From a virus (Duplodnaviria; Caudoviricetes), in IMG/VR virus record IMGVR_UViG_3300036770_008730: a DNA stretch of 64,000 nucleotides, one strand, 5' to 3'. The notes under the pieces are model-generated. The model was given only the letters and a program-made list of their open reading frames with translations. It was not told the origin of the DNA and did no database searches. The position numbers were made by a program, and so were the translations under genes. Shown here one piece after another: positions 1 through 61,984 of the stretch. The number at the start of each line of letters is the position of its first letter. Within the stretch, counting starts at the first letter, position 1.

Positions 1-309
1 TCAGTTTTAACAAATCCTGATACTTATACATACATCGGCACTTGTATTGAAGGTCAATATAAACATGGTAAGAAATCTCATATCACAAAAGATGCTCAAT
101 CTGTTAAAGTATTCGATTTTATGTTGAATAGACTTAAAACAAATAACTTACCTGACTTTTTAGAAGTTTGGCACGAAGGTCATTGTGGTAAATGTGGTCG
201 TAGATTGACTGTTCCAAGTTCTATCGAGAATGGATTGGGACCAGAATGTATAAAAACTCTTAGTCTAGCAGACAAAAGAGATAAATTCTTAGAAGTGATT
301 TTAGCATGA
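1..309 (+). CDS. 5'-truncated Zn-ribbon protein (DUF6011-like)
   Basis: Frame is open from base 1. C-terminal GHCGKCGRRLTVPSSIENGLGPEC motif. Confidence 0.6.
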   Translation, partial: SVLTNPDTYTYIGTCIEGQYKHGKKSHITKDAQSVKVFDFMLNRLKTNNLPDFLEVWHEGHCGKCGRRLTVPSSIENGLGPECIKTLSLADKRDKFLEVILA

Positions 310-755
310 TAAAAGTAATATTATCGTTAATTAATATAATACTTCTTTTTGTAACTCTCTTTCGATTCAAAAGAGATATGAGGTGGCAACTAAGGTCTGG
401 CGCAAATTGTTATAATTGTAAAGAACCAATTGATAATGAAAATTCAAAAAGGTCTTTTTTAGATGAAGATTTTAGATTATGCCAACCCTGTGAAAGAGAA
501 AGAAAAATAAAAATTGTAAAAAATAAGTTTTCTATTGACACTATTTATATTAAAAAATATTTCTTATCGAAAAAGTTTCACAATGTTCAGTGGTATATGA
601 TATTTTTTATGATGGTCCTTTTATCAGTTGATTTGTTTGTCTCTATCAATTATAATTCAAATTTAGTTGGATATATTAGCACTAGCTTCAATACCATTTT
701 TTATATACTTTGGATTTACTCGGTCAATTTAGCCAGAAAACCAAAAGGTAAATAA
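306..755 (+). CDS. Membrane protein with CxxC...CxxC Zn finger
   Basis: N-terminal TM segment, CYNC/CQPC pairs, two C-terminal hydrophobic segments. Confidence 0.6.
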   Translation: MIKVILSLINIILLFVTLFRFKRDMRWQLRSGANCYNCKEPIDNENSKRSFLDEDFRLCQPCERERKIKIVKNKFSIDTIYIKKYFLSKKFHNVQWYMIFFMMVLLSVDLFVSINYNSNLVGYISTSFNTIFYILWIYSVNLARKPKGK

Positions 756-756
756 A

Positions 757-783
757 AAACCCTCTATTTTTAGTAGAGGGTTT
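757..783. terminator. Intrinsic terminator between convergent genes
   Basis: AAACCCTCTA/TAGAGGGTTT inverted repeat with an upstream A-tract (U-tract on the minus strand). Confidence 0.7.
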
Positions 784-833
784 AGGGCCGACTTCTCGGG
801 ATCCACCACTTTGTTTTTTGAAAACAAAGAAAA

Positions 834-1037
834 TTACTTTACCTTTTCTATATATTTTATTATTCCACGAACAAAAAGTTCTTTAATTACCGACTCACAA
901 GTGTAAGTTTTATCAAAATAAAATTCTATGTTATCTCTAATATTTTCTAATCCTGCGTTATATAGTGTGTCAATTGCATAATTTTTAACATCTATATTTC
1001 TTTCAGAAAGAATTTCTTTTATTTTGTGTTTCATCAT
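834..1037 (-). CDS. Hypothetical protein
   Basis: 67-aa ORF directly downstream of uvsX on the same strand. Confidence 0.55.
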   Translation of the reverse strand: MMKHKIKEILSERNIDVKNYAIDTLYNAGLENIRDNIEFYFDKTYTCESVIKELFVRGIIKYIEKVK

Positions 1038-1051
1038 ATAGAAAATTAATT

Positions 1052-2278
1052 TTATTTGAATATATCGTCTGCGTCTGCTGAATCAACAAATCCATTTGAT
1101 TCATCATCGTCTCCTATCATTTGATTGAATTCATTTTCTACTTTATCCATTTCATCAATTGATTTGAATCTAAAATAATCATTTACAATTGGCGCCATTC
1201 TCTCAAGTACTTCTTGTGTGAAGACTTCGGAATTAAATAATTGCTTAGTAGTTAATGATTTATTTAAGTGTCTAACAAACCATCTGTTTCCGCCTGGAAC
1301 GAATTTAATTTCACCAGTTGACTTATCAACATCTTCTTTACCTTGAGCAATTCCAATTTGATTAAAATATTCTGGTCTACAGAAGGCATCTAAACCAGTA
1401 TATGGATTAAGACCATTTAAGAAAGAGATATCAAATCTTATTTTTTTAGGCTTTGCTAAACGATTCTTTTGAGTTTTGAAGAGAACTGAGATACCTGATT
1501 GACCTAAGTCCATATCGTCTTCTTCTCCTGTTTTTAATTTAGATTTAGAAAGGAATCCTAAAACTGATGCTGAATAAACAAGACCCATGCCACCTTTACT
1601 GATTTCCTTAGGGAATAAATCTTGTGTCAAATAGGTATGGTTGCAACAGATCATTGGAATATCAAGGTATCCGAGGTCAGAGCTTATACTTCTGAATAAA
1701 GCATTAAGCTGTTTAGCTCTAGTCATATCTTGTTTTATATCACCTTTTAATAAATCTGCTTTTTCTTTATTAGATGACATCATGCCGATTGAATCTAAAA
1801 CTATTAGAATTTTAGGAATTTCAAAACCACCCAGTTTAGCTTCTTTTAATTCATCTAATAATTGGGTTAAGGAAATATTGATATCTTCAACTTTATTAGA
1901 CCTAATTAGTCTGAATTTGTTAGGATCATTATCTATACCCATTTTGGTTATTCCTTCTAAATCAATTGAATTTTCAGTATCTATATAAATAACAGAGTAA
2001 CCATCTTTTTGAGATGATTTACATATTGAGTAAGCAATAAATGATTTACCAGCTCCTGATTCTCCTAATAGACCGAAAATACGACCTGCTAAGATTCCAC
2101 CGCCAACTAATTTAGCTGATAAGGCAGCGTCTAATAAATAAACACCGGTTGATATGTAGCTTCTTTCTTTAATTTCTTTTTCTATTTGAATTGGAACTGA
2201 TTTTGCTATGTTATCCAAAATAGTTCCTACTTTACTGAATTCAAATTTTTTTGAATCTTTTGATGTAGTCTTTGCCAT
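1052..2278 (-). CDS. uvsX: RecA/UvsX-like recombinase
   Basis: Walker A GESGAGKS, YIDTENS, IVLDSIG, KNR motif; T4 UvsX-like layout. Confidence 0.92.
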   Translation of the reverse strand: MAKTTSKDSKKFEFSKVGTILDNIAKSVPIQIEKEIKERSYISTGVYLLDAALSAKLVGGGILAGRIFGLLGESGAGKSFIAYSICKSSQKDGYSVIYIDTENSIDLEGITKMGIDNDPNKFRLIRSNKVEDINISLTQLLDELKEAKLGGFEIPKILIVLDSIGMMSSNKEKADLLKGDIKQDMTRAKQLNALFRSISSDLGYLDIPMICCNHTYLTQDLFPKEISKGGMGLVYSASVLGFLSKSKLKTGEEDDMDLGQSGISVLFKTQKNRLAKPKKIRFDISFLNGLNPYTGLDAFCRPEYFNQIGIAQGKEDVDKSTGEIKFVPGGNRWFVRHLNKSLTTKQLFNSEVFTQEVLERMAPIVNDYFRFKSIDEMDKVENEFNQMIGDDDESNGFVDSADADDIFK

Positions 2279-2392
2279 TGTAATTATTATTTTTTATACT
2301 TTATATATTAAAAATAGACCTCCTGTTTTATAATTGTGAATAATTTTTATCATAAATATCAAATGGTAGAACTAAAATTAATATATACTATT

Positions 2393-3457
2393 ATGAAAAA
2401 ACAATCATTTTTGGAAAAAGCGAGAAATAAACACGGTTATCGTTATGAGTATATTGATTTGCCTGATATAGTTATGCAAAAAGACCTTATAAAAGTAAAA
2501 TATAATGATTCAATTTATGAGCAAAGAGTATTGAAGCATTTGAAAGGTAGTAGGCCTGAGAAAAAAACCGTAAATAAGACCACTGAAGAATTTATAAGAG
2601 AGTCTGTGAAAGTTTGGGGAAATAAGTATGATTATTCTTTAGTTGATTATAAAAATGCAAAAACTAAAGTAAAAATAATATATGATAGCATAGTCTATGA
2701 GCAACTTCCAAACTCACATTTGATTGGATGTCCAGTCGAGGGATATTTAGATCAAGAAGTTTTTATACAAAAGTCCATAAAAAAGTGGAAAAACAAATAT
2801 GGCTACTCTTTAGTAGAATTTGTAAATGCTAATACTAAAGTAAAAATTATTTTTAATGATAAGATATATGAACAAACACCACATAATCATTTAAAATATG
2901 CTCCTGAAAAAAGATTAAATAAAAAAAGCACTGAAGAATTCATAGTTATGTCTAAGGAAATTCATGATAATAAATATACTTATGAAAAGACAAATTACGT
3001 TTCAGATAGAGCAAAAGTTATAATAACATGTCCACTGCATGGAGAATTTGAACAATCATGTAATGCTCACCTCAGAGGTCAAGGTTGTCCTAGTTGTAAA
3101 GAGTCAAGAGGTGAGAAGATAATTTCTTCATTTTTGAATAAATATGATATAAATTTTGTTAGGCAAAAAACATTTCCTGATTGCAAAGATGAAAGTCACC
3201 TTAGGTTTGACTTTTATTTACCAAGTGCTCGGACTTGTATTGAGTTTGATGGTATTCAACATTTTCAACCATTGAAATGCTTTGGTGGTCATGTATCTTA
3301 CTTTAAATTAAAAAATAGAGACAAAATCAAAAACGATTATTGTGAGGATAATTACATCAATTTAGTTAGAATCAGGTATGACCAGATAGATGATATTTAT
3401 CAGATTTTGTGGGAGAATTTAAAGAATTGGATAAAAGTTAGCAATAAGGTCAACTAA
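2393..3457 (+). CDS. Free-standing homing-type endonuclease (repeat DNA-binding units + PD-(D/E)xK nuclease)
   Basis: Three to four KYDYSLVxYxNxxTKVKII repeats, CPLHG...GCPSC Zn site, RFDFYLP...IEFDGIQHF nuclease core. Start moved to the ATG behind the AATATATA box. Confidence 0.8.
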   Translation: MKKQSFLEKARNKHGYRYEYIDLPDIVMQKDLIKVKYNDSIYEQRVLKHLKGSRPEKKTVNKTTEEFIRESVKVWGNKYDYSLVDYKNAKTKVKIIYDSIVYEQLPNSHLIGCPVEGYLDQEVFIQKSIKKWKNKYGYSLVEFVNANTKVKIIFNDKIYEQTPHNHLKYAPEKRLNKKSTEEFIVMSKEIHDNKYTYEKTNYVSDRAKVIITCPLHGEFEQSCNAHLRGQGCPSCKESRGEKIISSFLNKYDINFVRQKTFPDCKDESHLRFDFYLPSARTCIEFDGIQHFQPLKCFGGHVSYFKLKNRDKIKNDYCEDNYINLVRIRYDQIDDIYQILWENLKNWIKVSNKVN

Positions 3458-4042
3458 TTTATCCATTAATATTCCTATATTTTCCCTGGTTTCATAATTT
3501 ATTTCAAATGATTCTTTTAGGTATTTTGATAGAAATTCTACTTGTTTGAAATCTCTGTTATCTAGTGCTATATCAATTAGGTCATTGATTTCTCTTTTGG
3601 ACATATTTTCATAGTCTAATTCTTTGAGTTGTTTCCATTCTTCGCCTTCGGAATCCATTTGTTTTTTCATATCTTGAAGAAAATCTATTAGGAAGTGTAT
3701 TGATTTTTCTACACCTTCTTGAAATGATTTATCTATGAATATTGGTCGATTGGTTTTAAGAGTTTTATCGAATTTTTCGAGAATTACTCCTTTGAATTGT
3801 TCTGATAGAGATGGATGGTTATTTACTGATCCGGCAAACATTTCGAATAGAGTGTCGATTAGGTAGTCAGCCCCTTGTTCTAGTTTTTGTTTGTTATTAA
3901 CTATTCTTACCATTTTTTCTACTATGAATACTGGTTCGAGGCTTTTTACAATAGATTTTTTAATCGCCTCGACGCTTGCTTTGAATTCGTCATCGTTGTT
4001 TATGTTTTCTAGAAATAATTTCCAGTTTAATATTTTTTTCAT
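3419..4042 (-). CDS. Hypothetical protein with capsid-targeting-like leader (MKKILNWKLFLE)
   Basis: Leader motif; start moved to the second Met. Confidence 0.6.
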   Translation of the reverse strand: MKKILNWKLFLENINNDDEFKASVEAIKKSIVKSLEPVFIVEKMVRIVNNKQKLEQGADYLIDTLFEMFAGSVNNHPSLSEQFKGVILEKFDKTLKTNRPIFIDKSFQEGVEKSIHFLIDFLQDMKKQMDSEGEEWKQLKELDYENMSKREINDLIDIALDNRDFKQVEFLSKYLKESFEINYETRENIGILMDKLVDLIANFYPIL

Positions 4043-6492: not shown

Positions 6493-7071
6493 ATGGACAT
6501 TTGGTTTATTTCAGATACGCATTATGGGCACACAAACATTACCGGGTCTGATATTTCTCGTTGGAAAAGTGGATATAGAAACTTCAAAACACTTCATCAA
6601 ATGAATAAGGTTTTGGTAGATGGTATAAACAAATATGTCAAAGAAGATGATGTGCTTTATCATTTAGGTGATTGGAGTTTTGGAGGAGTTGATAACATAA
6701 AATTATTTAGAGATAGTTTGATATGTCAAAATATACACTTGATTAGAGGAAATCATGATGATAACATAGAAGGGTCTCAGATTGATTTATTTTCATCTGT
6801 TCAAGATGTACTAACTTTGAAAATTGGTAAAATGACTATTTTCCTTTCTCACTATTCACATCGTGTGTGGTTAGGTAGTCATAAAGGTGTTATTCATTTA
6901 TATGGACACAGTCATGGTTCAATTCCGGATATTGGAAAGTCAATGGATGTTGGTGTGGATGTTGCTTATAAAATGTTTGGTGAATATCGACCCTTTAATA
7001 TATCAGATATAAATAGAATTATGGAAAAGAGAGAAATACATAAAATTGATAGTCATGTTAGAGAAGAATAA
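6493..7071 (+). CDS. Calcineurin-like metallophosphoesterase
   Basis: SDTHYGH, HLGD, GNHD, HGHSH motifs. Confidence 0.88.
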   Translation: MDIWFISDTHYGHTNITGSDISRWKSGYRNFKTLHQMNKVLVDGINKYVKEDDVLYHLGDWSFGGVDNIKLFRDSLICQNIHLIRGNHDDNIEGSQIDLFSSVQDVLTLKIGKMTIFLSHYSHRVWLGSHKGVIHLYGHSHGSIPDIGKSMDVGVDVAYKMFGEYRPFNISDINRIMEKREIHKIDSHVREE

Positions 7072-7228
7072 TATAGTAAGTAAATTAGGTAAATCTAATT
7101 TGAAAATGTTAATAAATTCAATTTATGGTTCAATTCCAGGTGCTGATAATTTATGGCATAATATGTATAAAAAATATACTAGAACTGAATTTAGAAAACA
7201 AAAAATTAAAAACATTTTAAATGATTGA
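7055..7228 (+). CDS. Small protein with PolB motif-B-like segment and RxxKIxxIL tail
   Basis: KMLINSIYG followed by RKQKIKNIL; ORF overlaps both neighbours. Confidence 0.55.
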   Translation: MLEKNNIVSKLGKSNLKMLINSIYGSIPGADNLWHNMYKKYTRTEFRKQKIKNILND

Positions 7229-7844
7229 TATTTTTGATAAAAATAATATAGACCTAAGTAATATCATTTGTCATAGTGGTGGTGCTGTTGGTGCTGATAC
7301 TTATTGGGAAGAGATTGGTGAAAAGTTTGGAGTAAAGACAAGTGCTTATTCTTATAAGACTAAATATCACACTTCTGTAAATAAAGTTGAGATTAGTAAT
7401 GAAGATTTTATTGAAGGTATAGAGCAAGTTAATAAGGCAAATCTTAATCTTAAACGATATGGTATTCATAAGTTTATTAATTTACTTGCCCGAAATTGGG
7501 CACAGGTAAAATACTCAGAACAGATATTTGCTATTGGAACATTTTTAAAACCCGGTGAAAAAGATTCAAAGGGCTATGTTAATAAAGGAACTATTGATGT
7601 TGTTTCTGGTGGGACTGGATATGCTGTAATGATGGGTATTAATAATGAAAAAGAAGTATTTCTTTTTGACCAGGTTAGAGATTCTTGGTATAGATGGTCT
7701 TATACTTCAAATTCTTTTGTGGTATTGAAAAATTGTCCAAAAATTACTAAACAGAATTTTGCTGGAATTGGCACTAGAGAAATAAAACAAAATGGTATAG
7801 AACAGATAGAAAAGGTTTACGGACTTACTTTTAACAATGAGTGA
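7221..7844 (+). CDS. SLOG/YspA-like Rossmannoid protein
   Basis: HSGGAVGAD, GGTGYAV and FAGIGTR motifs. Confidence 0.55.
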   Translation: MIDIFDKNNIDLSNIICHSGGAVGADTYWEEIGEKFGVKTSAYSYKTKYHTSVNKVEISNEDFIEGIEQVNKANLNLKRYGIHKFINLLARNWAQVKYSEQIFAIGTFLKPGEKDSKGYVNKGTIDVVSGGTGYAVMMGINNEKEVFLFDQVRDSWYRWSYTSNSFVVLKNCPKITKQNFAGIGTREIKQNGIEQIEKVYGLTFNNE

Positions 7845-8118
7845 TTATTTTATAAAATATAAAAATTTAGCAATTTATGCTGAGGAGTCTCGCAAATTAG
7901 TGAGAAGAAATTACAAATGTCAAGTAGTTGCCACAGAGGCTGATACTTTATTTGATAAATATAAAACTAAGAATCCATATGCTCAATGTCGTAAATTAAC
8001 TATTGAAAGTGTTGAGAATTTGCTTCCGGTAAATCTAAAATTAGGCTTACTTGAACTGCCTGAAGTTCAAGCTTTAATCAGAGAAGATAAAATAAATAAG
8101 ATTATAGAAAATGATTAA
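7837..8118 (+). CDS. Hypothetical protein (RxxKIxxII tail)
   Basis: Overlapping operon ORF ending REDKINKII. Confidence 0.55.
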   Translation: MSDYFIKYKNLAIYAEESRKLVRRNYKCQVVATEADTLFDKYKTKNPYAQCRKLTIESVENLLPVNLKLGLLELPEVQALIREDKINKIIEND

Positions 8119-8590
8119 TATAAAAAAATGGTTTAGTTATGACCCCTTTGAGTGGAAAGTAAAAGTTTCAGCAGGTGTTATAATTATTTTAAGGAATGAA
8201 AAGATACTACTTTGTCATCCAACTGGTCATCCATGGAATGATAGTTATTCTTTTCCAAAGGGTGGAGTTGATGATGGTGAGTCGAATATTGATGCAGCAA
8301 TAAGAGAATTAAAAGAGGAGACTTCTTTAGTTATTGATGAGTCTCAAATTGATAATATAAATAGACCAATAATCGTAAATTATAGAAATAAAAAAGGTCG
8401 TAAATATAAAAAGGTTATTTTATATACGGTGAGAATTTCTTCGATATCAGAGGTCGGACTTGACAGAGATATTATAGAAAGAGAAAGATTACAACTTGAT
8501 GAAGTTGATTGGTGTGGATTTCTAACTAAACAAGATGCTCATCCAAAGATATTTCATCGATTTGCTCACTTACTTGATTTAATAAAATGA
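8111..8590 (+). CDS. Nudix hydrolase
   Basis: Nudix box GGVDDGESNIDAAIRELKEETS. Confidence 0.9.
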   Translation: MINIKKWFSYDPFEWKVKVSAGVIIILRNEKILLCHPTGHPWNDSYSFPKGGVDDGESNIDAAIRELKEETSLVIDESQIDNINRPIIVNYRNKKGRKYKKVILYTVRISSISEVGLDRDIIERERLQLDEVDWCGFLTKQDAHPKIFHRFAHLLDLIK

Positions 8591-8919
8591 AAAATGAATT
8601 AGATTTATCAAATCCTATATTTGTAATCTATGTAAATACACAGATTGCAACAGAACCTTCTAAATACTTAAATGAGGTTAAGAGTATGTTTGATATTTAT
8701 AATAATGTGACATTTTGGATAGTTTCTTCTGATGAAAATAGAATTGAGTGTGTTTGGGATGCTAAAGAGGGAGATAAAATTGAAGAACAAAAAAGACTAT
8801 TAAATGAGATAAATGCGAAAGTTAAATTATTTTCCGAGTCTAAAAATATCGAAGAGTTCAAAATGAACTTTAGAAACTGGACAATAGATGAATTAGTGTA
8901 TGGCGATAAAGAAGAATAA
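8587..8919 (+). CDS. Hypothetical protein
   Basis: Operon-coupled ORF. Confidence 0.55.
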   Translation: MKNELDLSNPIFVIYVNTQIATEPSKYLNEVKSMFDIYNNVTFWIVSSDENRIECVWDAKEGDKIEEQKRLLNEINAKVKLFSESKNIEEFKMNFRNWTIDELVYGDKEE

Positions 8920-9265
8920 AATAGAATTATTAGATATTCAGTTTTTGAAAACTGAAATGGAAAATTACTATAATCATATAGAATCTCTATATGATGATTT
9001 CTATTATTATGACCTCTGTGATTACTATTGTGAATGTGATGATTGTATGTCAACTTACACTTATTTATCAACACAGAAATCAAATTTAATTTATCGAGTT
9101 GGTAGAAAGCAAATGCGTTTTGTAGGTGAACCAATACTTGGTCAAATGATTGATATGAAATCTTTTTATCCAAAGGATGTTATTAGACAACTTAGAATAG
9201 ATTATTTACTTGGAATAAAAAATGAATTTACTAAACCAACGATAGGGGATATTTTTAATAAATAG
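8900..9265 (+). CDS. Hypothetical protein, Cys/Tyr/Asp-rich patch
   Basis: Operon-coupled ORF; CDYYCECDDC; RQLRIDYLL. Confidence 0.55.
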   Translation: MAIKKNKIELLDIQFLKTEMENYYNHIESLYDDFYYYDLCDYYCECDDCMSTYTYLSTQKSNLIYRVGRKQMRFVGEPILGQMIDMKSFYPKDVIRQLRIDYLLGIKNEFTKPTIGDIFNK

Positions 9266-38490: not shown

Positions 38491-38991
38491 ATGAATAAAC
38501 CAAGTAAAGAAGATATAATAAACAAATGGTCATCTATTTTAGGACCTATGGGTATTACTGGATCTCAATTAGCTAATATATCTCAGTTAGTCGAAAATCA
38601 ATCAAATCACATTTTAGAAAATCAGTTAGAAAATGAAGAAGCTAGCATCGACTTTTCTTCTCTTCTACCAATTGCTATGAAAGTTGCTTCTAAAACAATC
38701 TCAAATGAATTAATATTTGCTTCTCAAGAAGAAATTGACCAAATTAAAAATAAAGTCCAATCTGAAAATCGTGATGGTAAAATTGAATCTATTGTTGAAG
38801 GTTCAGAGTTTACTGAAAAGAAATTAGAAGATGATGAAGAGTATAAAAAACTAATGAAGAAAGGAGTTTCACCTTTATCTGCTCCCTCTGGAGTATTACA
38901 TTATTTAGATTATACTTATAATGATAATTCAAAAACTAAAACACATAAGAAAACGAGAAGAGCTGGAAAAAAACATAAGAAAAATGGGTAA
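38491..38991 (+). CDS. Truncated major-capsid-protein-like (gp23 N-terminal) protein
   Basis: KWSSIL...LLPIAMKVASKTISNELI...VSPLSAPSGVLHYLDYTY; only 166 aa. Confidence 0.55.
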   Translation: MNKPSKEDIINKWSSILGPMGITGSQLANISQLVENQSNHILENQLENEEASIDFSSLLPIAMKVASKTISNELIFASQEEIDQIKNKVQSENRDGKIESIVEGSEFTEKKLEDDEEYKKLMKKGVSPLSAPSGVLHYLDYTYNDNSKTKTHKKTRRAGKKHKKNG

Positions 38992-39166
38992 ATTTGTGAG
39001 TCCTGGAGTTTATGTAAAAGAAGTTGATATCTCAACTTGGATAGTCTATAAAAATATTCAAAGAAAGAAAAAAATAGCGAAAATACTTGGAATTGATTAC
39101 TCTCCTAATGTGATTATAACTTCTACACCAAAAGGTGGTCTTGTTAACTTTCCTCAAATTTGGTAA
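38984..39166 (+). CDS. Mini-protein with tail-sheath N-terminal motif
   Basis: MGKFVSPGVYVKEVDIS; 60 aa from the ATG at 38984. Confidence 0.55.
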   Translation: MGKFVSPGVYVKEVDISTWIVYKNIQRKKKIAKILGIDYSPNVIITSTPKGGLVNFPQIW

Positions 39167-39198: not shown

Positions 39199-39531
39199 AT
39201 GTACAATGTGTATCTCATATGCTCTGAAATCGAAGGTAAAAATCTTTACAAAATTGGATACACTAGAAGAGAAATAGAGAAACGAATAAAAGAATTCAAA
39301 ACAGGAAACGCTTCTTCTTTTTATATTGTAGATTCATTTCAATCAGAATGGGGAACAAAAATCGAAGCGAGATTACACAGAGTTTTCAATCATAAAAAAA
39401 TAAGTGGTGAATGGTTTGATCTAGATGAAAATGATATAAAAGAGTTTTCTAAAATTTGTAATTCTCTACACTCTAATTTTAAATTAATATCAACTCAAAA
39501 TACTTATTATTTAGATAGAGGTGATTTTTAA
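39199..39531 (+). CDS. GIY-YIG / T5orf172-like nuclease domain protein
   Basis: VYLI...YKIGYT...EKRIKEFKTGN...IEARLH...GEWF. Confidence 0.8.
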   Translation: MYNVYLICSEIEGKNLYKIGYTRREIEKRIKEFKTGNASSFYIVDSFQSEWGTKIEARLHRVFNHKKISGEWFDLDENDIKEFSKICNSLHSNFKLISTQNTYYLDRGDF

Positions 39532-40668
39532 TGCCTCATTTATTTTATCAATTACCATTTCAGCAGTTATTTGCTTAGTACATTCAAACTGTCTTTCTGT
39601 TCCTTTATGTAGGGGACACCAATTCCAATCTCCAGCATCTAATTTGTGAGTATTAAAGCAACCATTACAAACACTTTCATTAAAAACTCTAAATGTATTT
39701 GTTGTTGTTTCACTATATGGTTTACTAAATCCCGAAATTAAAACAACTGGTAGTCCACAAGACCAAGCTAACCAAGATAAACCAGACCCCAATCCAATAA
39801 ATAAATCACATGTAGATAAATCATCAATAACTTCTTGTAAAGACCCACCTTTGAATTTAGTAGTACCTTTTGGATGAAAGTTACCCATATATCCATCATT
39901 TTCTTTTGAATAGATAACAACTTCATATCCTATACTTTTTAAGTAATCAACTACTCTTTGCCAACCACCTGAATTATTCCAATATTTAGCCTGTGCTGTT
40001 GAGTGTAGACCTAATCCCACTTTCTTTTGTTTTTGTATATTTGGTTGTTTAAGTAGAGGTTTAATTTCAGTATATTCTAGACCAAGTATATCACAGATTG
40101 TTTGTTGTAGAGGTAGTAGTTTGAAATCTCTTGGATTTTGAGATGATTTAAATTGATCATTTTCATAATACCAACCAATTTTATACATCGCATAGATATT
40201 TTGAACTACTTGACCAGGATTTACAAATTGAATATTATTGTATTGTTCAATAAATAAATAATTGTGAAAAGTTGAAACTATAATCTCACAGTTGTGTTTT
40301 TTTCTGAACTCTTCAACATACGGAATCCAAGCTAGTGTATCACCAATTGAATTAGAATCAAATGCAATATAAACTCTTTTATTTTCAAAATTGACATTAT
40401 AATCTAAAATAATTTCTTTTGATTTAGAGTTATGAATTTTTATATTCCAATTTACAAAGTATTTGATACCTGATCTTGACCACATGTTTTTTTTCAGTTT
40501 AGATTGATAATGCAATTTACCATCATTAAACATTTGTATTGTGTATTCATCATCAATATCGCAATCAATTATTTCTACAAAAGCACCATCAACGAAATTG
40601 ATGGATATTTTAGGTAAAATTACTTTTTTGATTATTTTTTGATTTTTTGTTAAGTTATCATATATCAT
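39511..40668 (-). CDS. Aah/TibC-like O-heptosyltransferase (GT9-related)
   Basis: RVYIAFDSNSIGDTLAW, PLQQTICDILGL, STAQAKYWNN..GWQ.VVDYL, FIGLGSGLSWLAW, CNGC...CP..QFEC. Confidence 0.8.
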   Translation of the reverse strand: MIYDNLTKNQKIIKKVILPKISINFVDGAFVEIIDCDIDDEYTIQMFNDGKLHYQSKLKKNMWSRSGIKYFVNWNIKIHNSKSKEIILDYNVNFENKRVYIAFDSNSIGDTLAWIPYVEEFRKKHNCEIIVSTFHNYLFIEQYNNIQFVNPGQVVQNIYAMYKIGWYYENDQFKSSQNPRDFKLLPLQQTICDILGLEYTEIKPLLKQPNIQKQKKVGLGLHSTAQAKYWNNSGGWQRVVDYLKSIGYEVVIYSKENDGYMGNFHPKGTTKFKGGSLQEVIDDLSTCDLFIGLGSGLSWLAWSCGLPVVLISGFSKPYSETTTNTFRVFNESVCNGCFNTHKLDAGDWNWCPLHKGTERQFECTKQITAEMVIDKINEALKITSI

Positions 40669-41020: not shown

Positions 41021-41236
41021 ATGAAGATAGAAAATTATTATTTAAATTTAGAAAAAGTAAATACACTTACTAAAGAAGATAAGGATTATATTCATAGATA
41101 CTATCAAGATATGATGCATCATTTTATGGAGGGTAGAACAACTATTGCTCAATCTTTATTTCTTACTTTGATGAATCATGACTGTCTAATTGATGTTAGA
41201 GATAAAAAATTATCAAAAATCTTAGATGAAAGTTGA
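41021..41236 (+). CDS. Hypothetical protein (RDKKLSKIL tail)
   Basis: Operon-coupled ORF. Confidence 0.55.
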   Translation: MKIENYYLNLEKVNTLTKEDKDYIHRYYQDMMHHFMEGRTTIAQSLFLTLMNHDCLIDVRDKKLSKILDES

Positions 41237-43501: not shown

Positions 43502-44305
43502 ATGAAACACTTTTTAATTTTTTTATTTTTACTGTTATTTAACAATATTATTGCACAAACCGATACTTCTAAATTAAACATCATTTCCTGGAATATTCAA
43601 AATTTTGGTAGATCAAAATCCGAATTGGTAGATGTTATGAATTATATTGCTTCTAAAGTAAAATCATATGATATAGTAGCTGTTCAAGAAGTTTCAACTT
43701 CTGAATTTGGATCACAAGCTGTCGCCAAATTAGATGATTTGTTGGATAGAACTGGTTCATCTTGGGACTATATTGTATCAAATCCTACTACTGGACAAGG
43801 TTCAGAAAGATATGCTTATTTATACAAAAAACATAGAGTGTCTTTAAAGTTTGCTGATTTGGAAAAATCATTACAGGATTCACTTAATCGAGAACCGTTT
43901 AGAGCGATTTTTATATTCAAAGGACAAGAATATTTTCTTTTTAATTTACACTTAGTGCCAACCAATAAGCACCCAGAAATAGAGGCCCAAAAATTAGGCC
44001 ATTTAAATAAAACCTATTCTGGTAAAAGAATAGTCCTGATGGGTGATTTAAATCTTAGTCAATCAAATTCTGGATTCAATAGTCTAAAAAAATTTACTAA
44101 ACCAACTTTAATTAGTAAAAAAACATCATTAAAAATGAAAGAAGATGGTGTTTCACCAATGAATATGGAATATGACAACTTTTTTATATCAACAAATATA
44201 AATTTAACAAAGTCTGATGTAATCGAGTTTTGGAAAGACTACAAAGATCTGAAATCGGCAAGAAAGGTATCAGACCACTGTCCAATATATTGTATAATAA
44301 AATAG
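43502..44305 (+). CDS. Secreted EEP-family (DNase I-like) nuclease
   Basis: Signal peptide MKHFLIFLFLLLFNNIIA-Q; SWNIQNF, VQEV, ERYAYLY, REPF, MGDLN, YDNFF, SDHCP. Confidence 0.88.
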   Translation: MKHFLIFLFLLLFNNIIAQTDTSKLNIISWNIQNFGRSKSELVDVMNYIASKVKSYDIVAVQEVSTSEFGSQAVAKLDDLLDRTGSSWDYIVSNPTTGQGSERYAYLYKKHRVSLKFADLEKSLQDSLNREPFRAIFIFKGQEYFLFNLHLVPTNKHPEIEAQKLGHLNKTYSGKRIVLMGDLNLSQSNSGFNSLKKFTKPTLISKKTSLKMKEDGVSPMNMEYDNFFISTNINLTKSDVIEFWKDYKDLKSARKVSDHCPIYCIIK

Positions 44306-44312: not shown

Positions 44313-44504
44313 ATGATAGTTATAAAAATTGACGATAAAAATTCTCTTGAAAAAGCTCTTAAGAAATATAAGAGAAAATTTGATAATCTTAAAATAGTTA
44401 AACAACTTAGAGAGAGAAAAGAGTTCAAAAAGATATCAGTAAAAAGAAGAGAACAGATTAAAAAGGCTCAGTATATTGAGAACAAATTTAGAAATATCGA
44501 ATAA
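44313..44504 (+). CDS. rpsU: Ribosomal protein bS21
   Basis: SLEKALKKYKRK...VKQLRERKEFKKISVKRRE..KKA. Confidence 0.88.
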   Translation: MIVIKIDDKNSLEKALKKYKRKFDNLKIVKQLRERKEFKKISVKRREQIKKAQYIENKFRNIE

Positions 44505-44505
44505 C

Positions 44506-44706
44506 ATGGCTTGTCCAAAATGCGATTCTTTAAATGTGAAGCGAAGATTTTACGCGCCTGTTTCAAAATATGGTCATTTACCTACACCGCCTGTTGATTT
44601 TTGTGATGATTGTGGATTTAAATCACAAGAATCATTTAGTTCTATAAACTTCAGACATCAAAGAGATTATAAATTAGAACAAATATTACAAAATGGGGTT
44701 CAATAA
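44506..44706 (+). CDS. Small Zn-ribbon protein (RDYKLEQIL tail)
   Basis: CPKC...CDDC; start moved to the ATG at 44506. Confidence 0.55.
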   Translation: MACPKCDSLNVKRRFYAPVSKYGHLPTPPVDFCDDCGFKSQESFSSINFRHQRDYKLEQILQNGVQ

Positions 44707-54116: not shown

Positions 54117-54356
54117 TTACAAAAACTGTCTTTTACCTATATATAAATAATTGAGGACTTTCTATGTAGACTAAGAATTTTTTATTAATTTTAACCTGTA
54201 GTATTTTTATGAAAGAAATTAAATATCAAAGATTTATTGACAGACTTAGTACCTCTTTAAGAAAATCTAAAAAAAATAGATTAAGAGTTTTCCAAAGAAA
54301 AATTAAAATTATTAGCATTTTCAATTCTTAATATATAAGAAAACTTATTTATTTTT

Positions 54357-55896: not shown

Positions 55897-55900
55897 ATTT

Positions 55901-56876: not shown

Positions 56877-57989
56877 TTATTTTTTTTTGAACTCTTTTTT
56901 ATCATTAGAAATATATAAATTGTCAAAGTTATAATACTTATCAAATATTTCTCTAATTTTTTTTGGTTTTACTTCATCTAAGATTTCATAAACTGACCAA
57001 TCTTTTGGATTAATCCATTGATTAACATTTTTATATCTTAAGATTTCTTCTTTTTGTTTTCTTACACCATAATATTCCTTTACTATATTAAACCTATCTT
57101 TAGTTAAGTATTTACCTGGATTATCTAAAACTATTTTAATTGAATCAACAACAGCATTAAAGTTTTTATTTGAAGTTTGTGTTGATATAGTATTGATACC
57201 TTGATTATTTAGTCTTGATTGGTAACAGTGAACATAATATACCAATCCTCTTTTCTCACGAATCTCCTGATAAAGAGGTGATTTCAATCCTAAAGAAAGC
57301 ATTGCATTTATAAAATGAATATAAGCAAAGTCTTCATTAATTACCGGTGAAAGAATTGAAATAGAGGTCTTATCTTTGAAATCATTATTTAACTCTAATG
57401 GAACTTTATGGTCACCATAGGTAGTGTCTTTAACGATTATTCTGTCAGTAAAATCTAAAGTATTGTTTTTATACTTTTTGTTTTTACTAACATTAATTAC
57501 TTTAGTAGGTTTTGAATATTGAAGTTCAAAGTAGTTCAAACAATCCATAAATTTAAGATTTACTAAATCCTCTTTTAAACCAATAGGATCATAATCGTTA
57601 AATAATTTTCTCGAAAGATTTAACATATGTGATTGAGATTGGTCATTAAAGCAATCCATATATTCTTCTAATACGATGTTTCTTTCATTTTCAAACTGTT
57701 CTTTAGTAACATTGAACTGACCAAGTAAGTCCATAAACTCACCTTTCCACTTATTTACTTTTTCATCTAATCCTGTTAGATAAAACACTATTTCATTTGA
57801 TGAAGTGTAGGCATTCCATTCGATACCATCTTTATCAAAATCTTCTTGAAGATGGTCAAAGTTTTTGCACATAAGATGCTCCATTAAGTGTGATATACCA
57901 TACCACCCTTTTTTCTCTAAATTAGTCGAGCCTTCATAAACTATGTAAAAGCCAGATAAGTCTGTTTGAGATTTTAAATTAATGATCAT
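56877..57989 (-). CDS. M16 (insulinase-like) Zn peptidase
   Basis: GISHLMEH, NAYTS, ERNIVLEE, SPLYQEIREKRGLVY. Confidence 0.9.
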   Translation of the reverse strand: MIINLKSQTDLSGFYIVYEGSTNLEKKGWYGISHLMEHLMCKNFDHLQEDFDKDGIEWNAYTSSNEIVFYLTGLDEKVNKWKGEFMDLLGQFNVTKEQFENERNIVLEEYMDCFNDQSQSHMLNLSRKLFNDYDPIGLKEDLVNLKFMDCLNYFELQYSKPTKVINVSKNKKYKNNTLDFTDRIIVKDTTYGDHKVPLELNNDFKDKTSISILSPVINEDFAYIHFINAMLSLGLKSPLYQEIREKRGLVYYVHCYQSRLNNQGINTISTQTSNKNFNAVVDSIKIVLDNPGKYLTKDRFNIVKEYYGVRKQKEEILRYKNVNQWINPKDWSVYEILDEVKPKKIREIFDKYYNFDNLYISNDKKEFKKK

Positions 57990-58038: not shown

Positions 58039-58968
58039 TTATAAAACTTCATCTAATAAGATAATTTCATTACCGGTATCTTTAAATTTAAGTTTCACAC
58101 CATTATCAGATAATGATTTTGCAATCTTTGCTATTAAATCTTCTCTGTTCATTTCTGTAAAATAAATTTGTCCAACATCTGAATTATGAATCTCCTCTAA
58201 TAGGTCATTTACACTTATTATCAATCTGTCAAAGTCTACCATGAAGAAATTTTCCATATCAATTCCTTCAAAGTCAATATCTTCGATGATTTTACTTTTT
58301 AAACTATTCAAACTTCTTTCAACAAAATCTTCTCTTAAAACACCAGCTTGTTTTAACATAAGCTCTCCGTACTTAGTATGATGATAACCATAAGAGTATC
58401 TGATTAGAACCTCTTCATCATCTGTAACATATTCACACCAACCACCTCCACCTAATTCCACAATGTTAGGATCGTGACCTAGCTTTTCAGCTAATTTGTA
58501 AAGATAAATATCAACTAATCCATTTTGATTATCTAGTCCATAGGAGTTTATGAAATCCTGGAATTGTTGAAATGTTAAAGCATTGATTTCTTGTGAAAAT
58601 AAATTTTGTATAGATTGCATATTCCAACCACAATCCTCTTCAATTTCTTTTTGAATTAGTTCAAAATCTTTATCTGGATCATCTTTCTTTTTACAAAGAT
58701 CGGAATAAGACCTTCCCATTGCACAATTTTTTATTGACTCAGCAAAATCTTCTCTCAAATAACTTAACCAGTCTTGATGATTAGTAGTAATTTGTTCATA
58801 ATTATCACCTTCGAATTTTCCAATATATTTGACCGCTGATATATTGTTCGATGAATAGTTTAAAATCAATCCCCAGTGAGTGCCCGATGTTGCTAAAAAA
58901 TCATCAACTGAATTGTAGTTGAATTGATTATTCTCTTTCAGAAATTGGTTGTATCTGTTTAATTTCAT
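58039..58968 (-). CDS. Hypothetical protein with MKLNRYNQFLKE leader
   Basis: Leader motif; 309 aa. Confidence 0.65.
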   Translation of the reverse strand: MKLNRYNQFLKENNQFNYNSVDDFLATSGTHWGLILNYSSNNISAVKYIGKFEGDNYEQITTNHQDWLSYLREDFAESIKNCAMGRSYSDLCKKKDDPDKDFELIQKEIEEDCGWNMQSIQNLFSQEINALTFQQFQDFINSYGLDNQNGLVDIYLYKLAEKLGHDPNIVELGGGGWCEYVTDDEEVLIRYSYGYHHTKYGELMLKQAGVLREDFVERSLNSLKSKIIEDIDFEGIDMENFFMVDFDRLIISVNDLLEEIHNSDVGQIYFTEMNREDLIAKIAKSLSDNGVKLKFKDTGNEIILLDEVL

Positions 58969-59092
58969 TTGTTAACTTTTCTTTTTCTTCTTCTTCGGAA
59001 TCAATGAAAATTATTTGTTCATTTTTATCAAGAAAATCCTCATCAATATATCCTATATCGCTGTCATTAAAATAGGGAAATCTTAGTTTCAT
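58928..59092 (-). CDS. Small acidic ORF missed by the track (54 aa)
   Basis: MKLRFPYFNDSDIGYIDEDFL...EEEEKEK; AATATATA box about 22 nt upstream. Confidence 0.4.
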   Translation of the reverse strand: MKLRFPYFNDSDIGYIDEDFLDKNEQIIFIDSEEEEKEKLTNEIKQIQPISERE

Positions 59093-59123
59093 AAAAATAT
59101 AAAAGGTTTTAAGTATATATTAT

Positions 59124-60089
59124 TTAATACTTTCTATTTTTTAGATGTTTTAGGAAATCAAAAGAATCATCAAATTTATTTTTCAACAAATCTTCGATAG
59201 ATTCTACTTTTGTTAATTCTGATAAAAATCTTTCTTTTTCAAAGATATGCTCAGCAGCATCTTTTGCAAATTGACTTAAATAGATATTACATTTAATTTT
59301 ATATTCTTCAAAAAAATGTTTCAAAATAGCCGATGTTCTAAGACCCACTTGGTCATTATCAGAAAATATATTTATAACCGATGGCCTTTTTTTAAGTAAT
59401 TTATAAAGTTGTATTCCTGTCCACATTGCAGAAGAACAACTAACTGTTTTTTTATTCATCTTTATCATGGCCATCATATCAAACAAACCTTCTGTCATCC
59501 ATATTTCATCTCCCTCACTGATGTTATTCAATCCCCAGACCGGAATATCAGGACATGCTAAGCTATATTTAAGTGATTTTGATGAGTTGATTTTTCTAAC
59601 CGAGCAGTTTATTAACAGCCCATCTTCAAAAAGAGGTATGATTATACCCCCACTTTCAATACCATCATCTAAAACTTTATTAAGAATTGGATGACAAGTA
59701 GCTCCTATTATTTCTAAGTGTTTTTTATCTTTTATAGATGATAGACCAAGTATTGACCATTTTAAGATTGTTTCATCTCCAATTCCCCTATTAGTGAGAA
59801 ATTCATATTCTTTCTCATTAAAGTTTCCAACATTATCCCTTATTAACTTGGTAAGAGATTGTAAGTCTTGTTTTGTAACAATGATGTCTTTTACTTTTAA
59901 GTTGAGTTCTTTCTTTTTAACTTCAACCATTCTTTTATCATTATTGAAGTTATTTCTACACTTTTCTAAAATTGATTCAACATCATTAAGTATGTTTGGA
60001 TTTATTGAATTATCAATAAAGTTAGCTACGACTCCTTTTACAGATCTGTTATTGTAAAGAATAAAAGCTAATTCTTCATTAGTCCACAT
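59124..60089 (-). CDS. DnaG-like Toprim primase-domain protein
   Basis: YEFLTNRGI, IIIPL...R, MTEGLFD, FSDNDQVG. Confidence 0.75.
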   Translation of the reverse strand: MWTNEELAFILYNNRSVKGVVANFIDNSINPNILNDVESILEKCRNNFNNDKRMVEVKKKELNLKVKDIIVTKQDLQSLTKLIRDNVGNFNEKEYEFLTNRGIGDETILKWSILGLSSIKDKKHLEIIGATCHPILNKVLDDGIESGGIIIPLFEDGLLINCSVRKINSSKSLKYSLACPDIPVWGLNNISEGDEIWMTEGLFDMMAMIKMNKKTVSCSSAMWTGIQLYKLLKKRPSVINIFSDNDQVGLRTSAILKHFFEEYKIKCNIYLSQFAKDAAEHIFEKERFLSELTKVESIEDLLKNKFDDSFDFLKHLKNRKY

Positions 60090-60628
60090 TAGTTATATGC
60101 TTGAAGCTTTATTATATAGTTATAACCCAATACCTCTTCAAATCCATATTCTTTTATTGTTGAGATATATTCGTTTTCAATTATATTCACTATATCCTCA
60201 AAGGTTAGATTTTCTTCTTCAAAATTTTCTACTTCTTCTGTCTCTATATCATATACCGATAACATAGCATCATAATTTGTATCATTAACTCTGATAGATA
60301 AAATTATCATATAATTTTCATCTGCTAGAATGAAAGCGTGATATTTATGTTCCTCATCATATCTAACCATGATATTAAAATTCTCAGTTTCAATAATACC
60401 ATTTGGTTCTTTATCCGCCTGAATAAATACTGAAATAAATGGATATTTATAATTGACTATTTTCAAAAGAAGAGTTTCAATTGTTTTTTTATCTGGTGTG
60501 TAATCAACCTTATTATATTTACTGTAATTTTTACTTAAATAGTCAATTTCAGCTGATGGATCTGTTGAAAAAACTAAGTCTTTGATTTCTTCACTATCAA
60601 ACAACTCATTAAACTTTTTTATCTTCAT
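60089..60628 (-). CDS. Hypothetical protein with MKIKKFNE leader
   Basis: Leader motif; AATATATA box about 24 nt upstream. Confidence 0.6.
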   Translation of the reverse strand: MKIKKFNELFDSEEIKDLVFSTDPSAEIDYLSKNYSKYNKVDYTPDKKTIETLLLKIVNYKYPFISVFIQADKEPNGIIETENFNIMVRYDEEHKYHAFILADENYMIILSIRVNDTNYDAMLSVYDIETEEVENFEEENLTFEDIVNIIENEYISTIKEYGFEEVLGYNYIIKLQAYN

Positions 60629-60678
60629 ACTTGTTTTTTTTATTTATTATGTATATATTTGTATTCTAAAATAGAATT

Positions 60679-61263
60679 ATGTTAAAAGTAGCACTAACAG
60701 GTAATCGTTTTTCTGGTAAGAATAGAGTTTCTAAATTATTTAATTCTATTAGTATTCCAGTTTTTGACGCTGATACTTGTATAAAATACTTAATTTGTCA
60801 CAATTTCGAATTTTCTACTAAAGTCAAACAAAAAATGGTAAACTTCTTTAATGATGATAATAAAATCGACCCAGGAAGAGTTAATACCTCAGCACTTGAC
60901 CATTGTATAGATATAATTGAGCCCGAAATATTCAGACTTTATGAAAAATATTGTGAAAAAAATAGTCATTCAGTTTATGTAATTTTCAAATCTTCAATTA
61001 TCTTTGAAAGAGGTTGGAATAAAAAGTTTGACTATACGATAAATGTATTTGCTCCGGTTCACTATAGGATTGAAAGATGTCATAAAATAGATAAAACTGA
61101 TTACGAAGATATCTATGAATTTGCAAATGGTGAAATCTTAGATGAAAAAAAGAATATGAGTTCTGATTTTGTTGTACATAGCTATGATGGTGCTCCTGAT
61201 ATAATAAAATCTATAAACGAAATTGATACAAAAATTATTGACCACTATTTAAATAAAAATTAA
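60679..61263 (+). CDS. coaE: Dephospho-CoA kinase
   Basis: VALTGNRFSGK, PVFDAD, RI.R, SDFVV; TATATTTG promoter at 60654-60661. Confidence 0.75.
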   Translation: MLKVALTGNRFSGKNRVSKLFNSISIPVFDADTCIKYLICHNFEFSTKVKQKMVNFFNDDNKIDPGRVNTSALDHCIDIIEPEIFRLYEKYCEKNSHSVYVIFKSSIIFERGWNKKFDYTINVFAPVHYRIERCHKIDKTDYEDIYEFANGEILDEKKNMSSDFVVHSYDGAPDIIKSINEIDTKIIDHYLNKN

Positions 61264-61264
61264 T

Positions 61265-61984
61265 ATGATTGTAGTTTGTAAAAAAGCAACAAAAAAACTT
61301 GTAAAGGGATTAAGATATGAAGTTCAAAATCTTTGGAATGATGGAGGAAATCAACGATGGTTAGAATCAAAGATTGAAATAAAAGGAATTGGTCGTTATT
61401 CGGTTGATAACTTTACTGATACAGATGGTAAATCTTTGCCTAAAATTAATTTTTTAACTCCAAGACCTGTCTACAGAACATTAACTTTTGAAGAATTAAA
61501 AGAGGGTGATATCTTAGTTTGCACATGTGATTCTTACAAAACTTTAGCAAAAGACTCTATGTATAGAATTAGTAAACTCATAACAAAATCAACAGATTAT
61601 AGAGGTTATAATGGAACTATTCATCAAAGGGTTGATAAGAATGTTCAATTTGAAGGGATAAAAAGAGCTATCAAATTCTCTAGTTGGAAATTTAGAAAAC
61701 TTAGTTCAGAGGAATCTCGTGAAATACAATTATCTTCTATTTTGAATGGTGAGAAGCCACCAGTTATTATTACATCATCTGCAAGAAAAATTGATTTAGT
61801 TACAAACAAAGATCGAGTTTTAATGAACTTACTAGCTAAATCAATTTTGGACTCAAATAGACATCATCTTTCGATATTAGAATGGGCTATTCAAAAAGTA
61901 GGTAATAACTATTCAATAACAGAAGAAGATTATAAATCTTTACTCAATCTTTCACTGAAGGAAGTTTTGGAAAAACTGAAATAA
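61265..61984 (+). CDS. Hypothetical protein
   Basis: 239-aa ORF coupled to coaE; contains REIQLSSIL. Confidence 0.6.
   Translation: MIVVCKKATKKLVKGLRYEVQNLWNDGGNQRWLESKIEIKGIGRYSVDNFTDTDGKSLPKINFLTPRPVYRTLTFEELKEGDILVCTCDSYKTLAKDSMYRISKLITKSTDYRGYNGTIHQRVDKNVQFEGIKRAIKFSSWKFRKLSSEESREIQLSSILNGEKPPVIITSSARKIDLVTNKDRVLMNLLAKSILDSNRHHLSILEWAIQKVGNNYSITEEDYKSLLNLSLKEVLEKLK

Follow-up and report, generated by a model that had tools for sequence, protein, structure and literature searches.

A modular C-terminal peptide motif, probably a docking or sorting tag, on small proteins of Mahaphage-related huge phages

Short terminal peptides that bring proteins to a common machine are known from several systems. 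Encapsulin cargo-loading peptides and the T4 capsid targeting sequence send proteins to one HK97-fold shell irrespective of the nature of the cargo, and the encapsulin peptides are C-terminal and lineage-specific in sequence. Degrons and tethers recognized by AAA+ machines, such as the ssrA tag, the MuA-type ClpX C-motif and the SspB XB peptide, are modular, transferable C-terminal peptides with one proteolytic reader. The C-terminal signal of Dot/Icm type IV secretion effectors is carried by hundreds of unrelated, fast-evolving orphan proteins, about a tenth of the proteome, which share one machine. Microcompartment encapsulation peptides, about 10-18 residues long, form amphipathic helices at protein termini and attach cargo to a proteinaceous shell. 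PIP-box and other clamp-binding motifs, e.g., those of the T4 gp45 partners, lie at the extreme C-terminus and have h-x-x-h-h spacing, basic flanks and a conserved polar residue three positions upstream, with many partners per hub. Here we describe a motif that resembles each of these systems in part, hereafter called the tag. It occurs on small proteins encoded by a stretch of 64 kb (29% G+C; the window) of the Caudoviricetes virus record IMGVR_UViG_3300036770_008730. Full-text literature searches returned no earlier description of such a tag.

The sequence comparisons below indicate that the tag is likely a protein-level, modular C-terminal short linear motif that acts as a docking or sorting handle for one receptor. 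The window is syntenic with two uncultured genomes of the 'Mahaphage' clade, LR745206.1 (634,780 bp; W01) and LR756502.1 (642,428 bp; W02), with protein identities of 30-80%, and the three form one clade of phages of ~600 kb. Mahaphage-clade genomes are among the huge phages whose predicted hosts are Bacteroidetes (PMC7162821). Further comparison genomes were LR756504 (W03), LR756501 (W04), LR756500, Flavobacterium phage MaF61 and Sphingomonas phage PAU. Open reading frames (ORFs) were taken as the longest non-overlapping frames of at least 40 residues, so that all percentages given here are approximate.

The consensus of the tag is (K)-(S/Q)-x-h-R-[D>E,N]-x-K-[I/L]-[N/D]-[K/Q/E]-[I>L]-[L>I,G], usually followed by 0-6 residues and then the stop codon. 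Using a strict pattern, R..K[IL]..[IL][ILV], we found six matches in the 20,862 residues of the window, where residue-shuffled proteins gave 0.41 on average and none of 300 shuffles reached six; a looser pattern gave nine matches vs 0.92. Because the enrichment in the window was established post hoc, it was retested on the independent whole genomes. W01 contained 85 strict matches (4.66 ± 2.05 expected) and W02 contained 81 (4.71 ± 2.12 expected). A preliminary description of the window had proposed a shared motif of this kind on about ten proteins, and the excess over the shuffled-proteome null bears this out. Compositional chance is ruled out by the shuffles and by equally AT-rich phages that lack the motif.

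Position is as distinctive as sequence. In W01 and W02, respectively, 72 of 85 and 68 of 81 strict matches lie within 10 residues of the C-terminus, at a median distance of 2. A 13-position matrix, iterated on C-terminal windows and used with a score threshold of at least 10, found a tag within the last 10 residues of 172 of 990 ORFs in W01, 175 of 1009 in W02 and 7 of 75 in the window, compared with about 1 of 2074 shuffled ORFs. The tagged share of predicted ORFs in the two relatives is thus about 17%. Matches of the matrix numbered 167 and 168 (W01, W02) in the last 24 residues, 3 and 1 in the first 24, and 3 and 4 in the middle 24, and the reversed sequences of both genomes gave none. The tail behind the motif ranges from 0 to 11 residues and is most often a single residue (152 of 349). 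Tags of a sub-type in W01 and W02 end in [L/I]-G-[I/L] (K-L-x-x-L-G-I-stop), and the internal tags of the window ORFs starting at 8900 and 38984 continue with L-G-I in the same way. We take this tripeptide to resemble the ClpP-docking loop motif of Clp ATPases.

The proteins that carry the tag have little else in common. After removal of the tag, 144 strict carriers fell into 129 BLAST clusters, one of them a six-member paralogue cluster, so the earlier view of the carriers as unrelated holds. Their bodies span 40-731 residues, almost all carriers being shorter than 200 residues, and Pfam domains (riboflavin kinase, BtpA and DUF6011) were found in only 3 of the 60 larger ones. Tagged proteins make up 30-36% of all ORFs of 80-150 residues vs about 1% of ORFs above 300 residues in W01 and W02. 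Their genes form arrays, with 62 and 68 adjacent pairs vs about 30 expected, and one 40-kb bin has 48 tagged ORFs out of 86.

The tag is also the part of these proteins that persists. An orthologue in the sister genome was found for 28-33% of the tagged ORFs, and 87-100% of these orthologues are tagged as well, while their bodies are only about 40% identical. For untagged ORFs, the share of tagged orthologues is 0-3.5%. Body identity is 40% for tagged ORFs vs 52%, i.e., tagged bodies evolve fast. Judged from these alignments, the tag is under purifying selection at the amino acid level and is kept while the bodies diverge. For ORF 41021-41236 the tag is retained in the W01 orthologue and in six of six database homologues. 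The AlphaFold2 (AF2) model of this protein has a helical body with a predicted local distance difference test score (pLDDT) of about 90 and places the tag in a helix at residues 59-69 with a pLDDT of 50-60. The tag is thus predicted to be a terminal helix that is not fixed to the body.

The tag is not a general property of AT-rich huge phages. With the same matrix, 7% of the ORFs were tagged in LR756504 and 0.3-0.4% in LR756501 and LR756500 (24-32% G+C), each scanned over its first 400 kb, and 0% in MaF61 and PAU. When patterns enriched in the last 16 residues were sought de novo, R..K[IL] was recovered in W01 and W02, and other C-terminal motifs were found elsewhere. At least 107 ORFs of LR756504 carry a related variant, E-[Y/H]-R-K-x-x-I-x-[D/E]-L-[L/I]. 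The 735-kb phage LR756501 carries a different, acidic-aromatic tag, (F/I)-S-x-x-D-P-Y-G-E-E-x-W followed by 1-3 residues, on at least 41 ORFs and in 67 further internal copies, with none in shuffled proteins. In LR756500 a third tag, N-A-D-D-F-G-F-(F/L)-D-N, ends 15 larger ORFs (median 257 residues); its acidic-aromatic appearance is presumably like that of clamp- or SSB-type tails. The de novo C-terminal search gave nothing in MaF61 and PAU. Lineage-specific tags are the pattern expected of a peptide that co-evolves with its reader.

The sites in the window are collected in Table 1. All ten strings listed in the preliminary description exist in plus-strand ORFs, and nine score at least 10; RERKIKIV falls below the threshold. 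The positions given for them are ORF starts and not motif sites. Five of the ten lie within 6 residues of the stop codon, in line with the statement that the proteins often end soon after the motif. A good tag at the left edge of the window, in ORF 1-309, had been missed, as had a doubtful one at 54296-54322. ORF 1-309, which the window edge cuts, encodes a DUF6011-like zinc-ribbon protein (DUF6011 was matched in its orthologue set), and its W02 orthologue ends in RDKKLKTILG. Other sites also recur in relatives. Orthologues of ORF 306-755 carry similar short forms, REERLNIL and RDEKINLV, at the place of RERKIKIV. The degenerate RNWTIDELV corresponds to RDWRLKEII and RNWRLGELL, RQLRIDYLL-GI to RERKIDQILGL in W01, and the internal REIQLSSIL to REISLNHIL in W01 and RELQLSSVL in W02. 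ORF 7837-8118 has a homologue in neither W01 nor W02. The C-terminal half of ORF 8900-9265 resembles a sheath-like mini-ORF of W02 (L002; local alignment E=0.002).

Table 1. Tag sites and other features of the window, followed by loci in related genomes (scores are those of the 13-position matrix)
Feature	Position (nt)	Strand	ORF or context	Details
RDKFLEVIL	277-303	+	ORF 1-309; 1 residue before stop	score 14.0
RERKIKIV	495-518	+	ORF 306-755 (zinc ribbon and membrane segments); internal	below threshold, one residue short; doubtful
RKQKIKNIL	7193-7219	+	60-aa ORF 7046-7228; 2 residues before stop	score 17.1
REDKINKII	8080-8106	+	93-aa orphan ORF 7837-8118; 3 residues before stop	score 20.9
RNWTIDELV	8872-8898	+	110-aa ORF 8587-8919; 6 residues before stop	score 10.8; degenerate
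RQLRIDYLL-GI	9185-9211	+	121-aa ORF 8900-9265; 17 residues before stop	score 14.4
N-RDGKIESIV	38770-38796	+	166-aa ORF 38491-38991; inside insert of capsid paralogue
RKKKIAKIL-GI	39062-39088	+	60-aa ORF 38984-39166; 25 residues before stop	score 15.6
V-RDKKLSKIL	41198-41224	+	71-aa orphan ORF 41021-41236; 3 residues before stop	score 21.7; near-consensus
RDYKLEQIL	44662-44688	+	76-aa ORF 44476-44706; 5 residues before stop	score 20.8; weak zinc-ribbon matches
RKIKIISIF	54296-54322	+	doubtful 40-aa ORF 54209-54331, itself unsupported	score 11.6
REIQLSSIL	61718-61744	+	239-aa ORF 61265-61984; internal, 79 residues before stop	score 14.2
PolB motif-B-like K-M-L-I-N-S-I-Y-G	7103-7129	+	ORF 7046-7228
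Capsid N-terminal paralogue	38491-38991	+	166 aa	phrog_138, residues 6-74, E=4.9e-4
Sheath-N-terminus-like F-V-S-P-G-V-Y-V-K-E-V-D-I-S	38990-39034	+	start of ORF 38984-39166
Homing-endonuclease-like ORF	39199-39531	+	110 aa	PHROG matches to 3e-16, one family labelled homing endonuclease
385-aa ORF	39511-40668	-		homologues in LR756504 and LR756501
267-aa ORF	43502-44305	+		weak PHROG match, family labelled cytolethal distending toxin B subunit, E=8e-5
Ribosomal protein bS21 homologue	44313-44504	+		phrog_21469, E=1.7e-4; conserved in W01 and W02
M16 (insulinase-type) zinc peptidase	56877-57989	-		PF00675, PF05193; intact H-x-x-E-H (H-L-M-E-H)
Late-type word (AATATATA)	upstream of 21737, 28569, 31306, 37158, 48900
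Host-type word (TATATTTG)	e.g. upstream of 10515, 17474, 60679
Clp set	423224-425329, 123568-124089, 75197-75721, 180435-180641		LR745206.1	equivalents in LR756502.1 and LR756504.1
Split PolB	232803-234344, 130568-131992	+, -	LR745206.1
Split PolB	253853-255391, 120483-121907	+, -	LR756502.1
Tag loci of LR756501.1	e.g. 499642-505983, 552104-560179		L098-L117, L194-L210
Tag loci of LR756500.1			L118-L137, L190-L193	mostly behind late-type promoter word

Three tagged mini-proteins of the window had been described as carrying fragments of core phage proteins, namely of the major capsid protein, the tail sheath and the family B DNA polymerase (PolB). For the capsid this stands. In addition to the profile match of ORF 38491-38991, its W01 and W02 orthologues match the full-length W02 capsid protein at E=5.5e-20 and 7.8e-12, and intact capsid genes of 560-571 residues lie about 90 kb away in the relatives, whereas the window itself encodes no full-length capsid protein. 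The ORF represents the first ~115 residues of a T4 gp23-type capsid protein with an insert of ~45 residues that holds the tag and a basic C-terminal tail. It lacks the complete HK97-fold body (A and P domains, about 450-570 residues), and its AF2 model has a mean pLDDT of 50 and no stand-alone fold. From these matches it is a paralogue of the capsid N-terminal arm or propeptide and not a capsid protein. The family comprises 411 database clusters, those listed all having ~160 residues, and N93, R94, K97 and I98 are invariant in 21 aligned homologues, the Asp and the Gly being changed in one each.

The polymerase and sheath assignments in the window rest on signatures of 9-15 residues, and profile support was found for neither. 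ORF 7046-7228 gave no Pfam or PHROG match to PolB and only chance matches in a search of PDB sequences. Its positional orthologue in W01 (52 residues) keeps K-I-S-I-N-S-Y-Y-G and R-K-S-K-I-K-N-I-W; the proteins thus share two conserved elements, K-x3-N-S-x-Y-G and the tag. The sheath-like ORF 38984-39166 likewise gave no Pfam or PHROG match at E<=1 and chance PDB-sequence matches only. The W02 orthologue is 60% identical over 35 residues and contains R-F-V-S-P-G-V-Y-T-K-E-V-D-I-S and RRGKICRLLGI; what is conserved of the sheath-like start is a signature of ~12 residues, S-P-G-V-Y-x-K-E-V-D-x-S. The sheath proteins of W01 and W02 themselves begin differently, with K-R-P-G-I-F-I-E-E-F-D-Q-S. Elsewhere, a 49-residue ORF of W02 joins PolB motif A (PF00136, E=2.9e-4) to a tag, and the relatives have tagged mini-ORFs with parts of the portal, of the prohead protease, of the ClpC UVR motif and of two capsid regions, the C-terminus and a central, spine-helix-like segment. 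Overall, resemblance to part of a larger protein was found for 9 of 380 small tagged ORFs (2.4%) vs 32 of 994 untagged ones (3.2%), and some capsid-propeptide paralogues carry no tag. Mini-proteins of the capsid, PolB-like and sheath-like kinds make up a small, special group among the carriers and are not the basis of the system.

Two observations concern the surroundings of these genes. In the relatives, PolB itself is encoded in two parts by genes that lie on opposite strands, about 100 kb from each other; the protein is divided between motifs A and B, and each part has a coiled-coil-like end where it is broken. In the window, the capsid-like and sheath-like mini-ORFs are directly followed by ORF 39199-39531, 65-66% identical in W01 and W02, which by eye looks T5orf172/GIY-YIG-type.

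We used promoter-like words to examine when carriers might be expressed. Two words are enriched 10-20-fold upstream of W01 and W02 genes, [A/T]ATATATA and TATATTTG(TA). The -7 element of the Bacteroidetes primary sigma factor is TAnnTTTG, and the second, host-type word fits it. Among the genes checked, the first, late-type word immediately precedes the capsid and sheath genes of both genomes, the portal gene of W01 and the prohead protease gene of W02. When each ORF was assigned the nearest upstream word along its strand, 27.7% of the ORFs behind the host-type word were tagged vs 6.6% behind the late-type word (odds ratio 5.4, p=4e-22); for small ORFs only, these shares were 37% and 9.9%. Carriers are thus probably early proteins for the most part, as they lie preferentially behind the host-type word and not behind the one that precedes the genes for capsid, portal and sheath. 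In the window, 37158 follows a late-type word and has both the sheath-like ORF and the capsid paralogue downstream of it.

Candidate readers were looked for among proteins that accompany the tag. W01, W02 and LR756504 encode a ClpC-like unfoldase, two canonical ClpP proteins and ClpS, and they are the only genomes of the comparison with the complete set. The unfoldase of the relatives has a UVR M-domain and a V-G-F ClpP-docking loop but no N-domain. In W01, a tagged ORF of 210 residues lies directly downstream of one of the ClpP genes. Within the window, the M16 peptidase is one candidate tag reader or processor. It is 80% identical in W01 and W02 and 46-50% in LR756504 and LR756501, is absent from genomes W05-W07, phages with few or no tags, and has 1234 database relatives, the closest 120 of which are 80-100% identical, far above most window genes. 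In a presence/absence screen, 19 proteins of at least 120 residues were common to W01-W03 and missing from W04-W07; a PrkA-type AAA+ protein headed the list, which also included RNase II-like, methyltransferase, NUDIX and HD proteins.

Five motifs of the window stop 1-4 nt short of the next ATG, and for this reason an in-frame origin in initiation regions or other DNA signals was tested. The motif could then be a nucleotide-level by-product, read in frame at gene ends from a promoter, a terminator, a small mobile element or an AT-rich initiation region, or else a nascent-peptide signal that acts on the terminating ribosome and couples translation of the next gene; the median distance of -1 nt between carriers and the next gene and the sharp peak of the tail at one residue fit such an origin. 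However, arginine codons in the motif occur in genomic proportions (AGA 0.72 vs 0.73, CGT 0.08 vs 0.07), as do lysine codons. Information content is at background outside the nine motif codons, with none in third codon positions or flanks, and 22 of 139 carriers (16%) have a convergent gene next to them. Synonymous codons, flanks and convergent neighbours together rule out an initiation region, promoter, terminator or repeat as the signal, and the constraint acts on the protein, not on the DNA. The DNA version of this explanation is largely refuted. The spread of tail lengths, the conserved internal copies and the absence from phages of equal AT content speak against it as well, and we consider it scarcely credible in any form. 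That the tag is a relic of common descent, with the carriers forming one huge, fast-diverging paralogous family without a shared reader, appears very unlikely. Arrays of adjacent genes as left by tandem duplication, the six-member cluster and the fast evolution of the bodies are in its favor, but retention of ten residues in nearly all orthologues would still need strong selection on the tag. A single paralogous family is rejected by the 129 clusters; bodies differ in length and predicted fold type, domains are as diverse as riboflavin kinase, BtpA, DUF6011, zinc ribbons and the capsid N-arm, and in the capsid paralogue the tag is an insertion.

Two further alternatives were weighed. According to the preliminary description, tagged fragments of capsid, sheath and polymerase form a decoy or mimic system that soaks up host defence sensors or poisons assembly or replication of competing phages. 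The conserved capsid paralogue, the pieces of capsid C-terminus, portal, prohead protease and ClpC in relatives, the W02 ORF with PolB motif A and the signature shared with W01 would all suit this idea, and the PolB- and sheath-like signatures of the window look closer to the canonical sequences than to the relatives' own (N-G-S-Y-G of the split PolB; R-P-G-I-F of the sheath), as might be expected for foreign targets. Tagged small ORFs, however, do not have a higher fragment rate than untagged ones, no fragment is recognizable in the remaining ~97% of carriers, which are orphans, two of the three window fragments lack profile or PDB-sequence support, capsid-propeptide paralogues also come without the tag, and no defence sensor or competitor is linked to it. 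Decoys or dominant negatives do not explain the tag; such a role might apply to at most a small subset of carriers, and as an account of the system it is quite improbable. The other alternative, a signal for virion loading and ejection by which the tag binds the procapsid interior or scaffold and small effectors are packaged and injected with the DNA, we regard as unlikely. It agrees with textbook knowledge that C-terminal peptides load cargo into HK97-fold encapsulin shells, and with carriers small enough for passage through the tail. Each lineage has its own tag, as if fitting its own shell or scaffold, the virion is one machine common to all, head proteins are the source of tagged fragments, and the capsid paralogue and sheath-like ORF follow a late-type word. 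Yet tagged ORFs are depleted fourfold behind the head-gene motif, a set of ~170 packaged species per genome would have no precedent, the capsid-targeting signals known from phages are N-terminal and cleaved, and no conserved protease site accompanies the tag.

Recognition by one receptor remains the best explanation of the motif. The preliminary description had also viewed the helix as a shared docking or localization tag, and selection on amino acids, C-terminal position, modularity, retention in orthologues and the poorly packed terminal helix of the AF2 model support this part of it. The tag would be a short exposed terminal helix that one receptor reads as a common docking or sorting handle, and a large set of accessory proteins would in this way be given a shared fate. 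Our preferred, weakly supported guess for that fate is delivery or tethering to a proteolytic machine, for which the ClpC-like unfoldase with two ClpP and ClpS of the relatives or the M16 peptidase of the window are candidates. The outcome might be timed removal of early proteins, or the carriers might act as adaptors. We infer that proteolytic targeting or tethering is slightly ahead of virion loading. A wider scheme is conceivable but doubtful: a lineage-specific address code that routes up to ~170 accessory proteins to a single protease or procapsid machine, with the mini-proteins made of core pieces serving as adaptors, dominant negatives or decoys.

Several results weigh against docking to one receptor and a proteolytic fate. 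About 30-40 tag-like sites per genome are internal, some of them conserved, and a strictly C-terminal signal leaves these unexplained. Timing is deduced from promoter-like words alone: no word was assigned to 164 tagged ORFs, and an early/late contrast does not reappear when these words are applied to LR756504 or LR756501. The N-domain missing from the ClpC of the relatives is the part that normally takes adaptors. LR756501, which has its own tag, encodes the unfoldase only, without ClpP or ClpS, and LR756500, also with its own tag, lacks ClpC and has only weak ClpP-like genes; because these sets are incomplete, phage Clp cannot be the general reader if all tags do the same job. The correlation with Clp concerns three genomes of one clade and may reflect simple shared ancestry. 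None of the 19 clade-specific proteins stands out as a receptor, and the counts come from crude ORF sets.

The other genes of the window are those of a large phage with many small orphans. Products include RecA/UvsX-like, PhoH, SbcC, Dam methylase and Toprim-domain (primase-like) proteins, NUDIX and metallophosphoesterase proteins (both named from sequence motifs in the translations), M16 and M28 peptidases, collagen-like fibre and virion proteins, and the bS21 homologue. Immediately after this homologue comes the tagged zinc-ribbon ORF 44476-44706. ORF 43502-44305, which follows SbcC, may have a DNase I-like nuclease fold and may be a nuclease partner rather than a toxin. The minus-strand ORF 39511-40668 has no homologue in the closer W01 and W02, a distribution that looks as if the gene were mobile. 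Relatives of the window phage, including two copies of the capsid-arm paralogue, are also present on a JGI contig of 816,658 bp, which exceeds the 735 kb given in PMC7162821 for the largest phage genome described.

The tag sorts hundreds of huge-phage orphans, most of which otherwise offer no handle for study, into one functional class, and the ten-residue peptide could serve as bait for fishing out the receptor. The occurrence of differing C-terminal tags across lineages suggests a general and so far undescribed organizing principle. If the reader is a protease, the phages would have programmed turnover of their early proteome by a virus-encoded degron system; if it is the procapsid, they would have the largest known set of packaged effectors. 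In either case the tag would be portable and of use in engineering.

Compared with the systems introduced above, the tag agrees fully with none. The LR756504 variant (E-Y-R-K-L-I-I-E-D-L-I) has a pattern that we take to be like that of PduD/PduP-type peptides, but the bacterial microcompartment shell domain PF00936 is absent from five huge-phage genomes and was found in control genomes, which rules out microcompartment targeting. Unlike PIP-box motifs, the tag has no aromatic residues and sits on orphans, not on DNA enzymes; PF02916 and PF02768, models for which phage clamps are often too divergent, matched no gp45-type or beta-type clamp in the relatives. AAA+ degrons are few per proteome or added co-translationally, and no known one is encoded in the genome as a 10-residue helix that has an invariant Arg and occurs on 17% of ORFs; the phage tag lies 0-11 residues from the free carboxylate, and its recognition by Clp is putative. 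Dot/Icm signals are loose compositional patterns in bacteria, whereas the phage motif is sharp and the virion is the only known translocation machine. Encapsulin peptides, finally, are extended, rich in G, S and L and found on one to few cargo enzymes, and the T4 signal is N-terminal and cleaved. The phage tag, in contrast, is a helical Arg/Lys/Ile/Leu motif carried by ~170 ORFs per genome and depleted behind the late-type motif.

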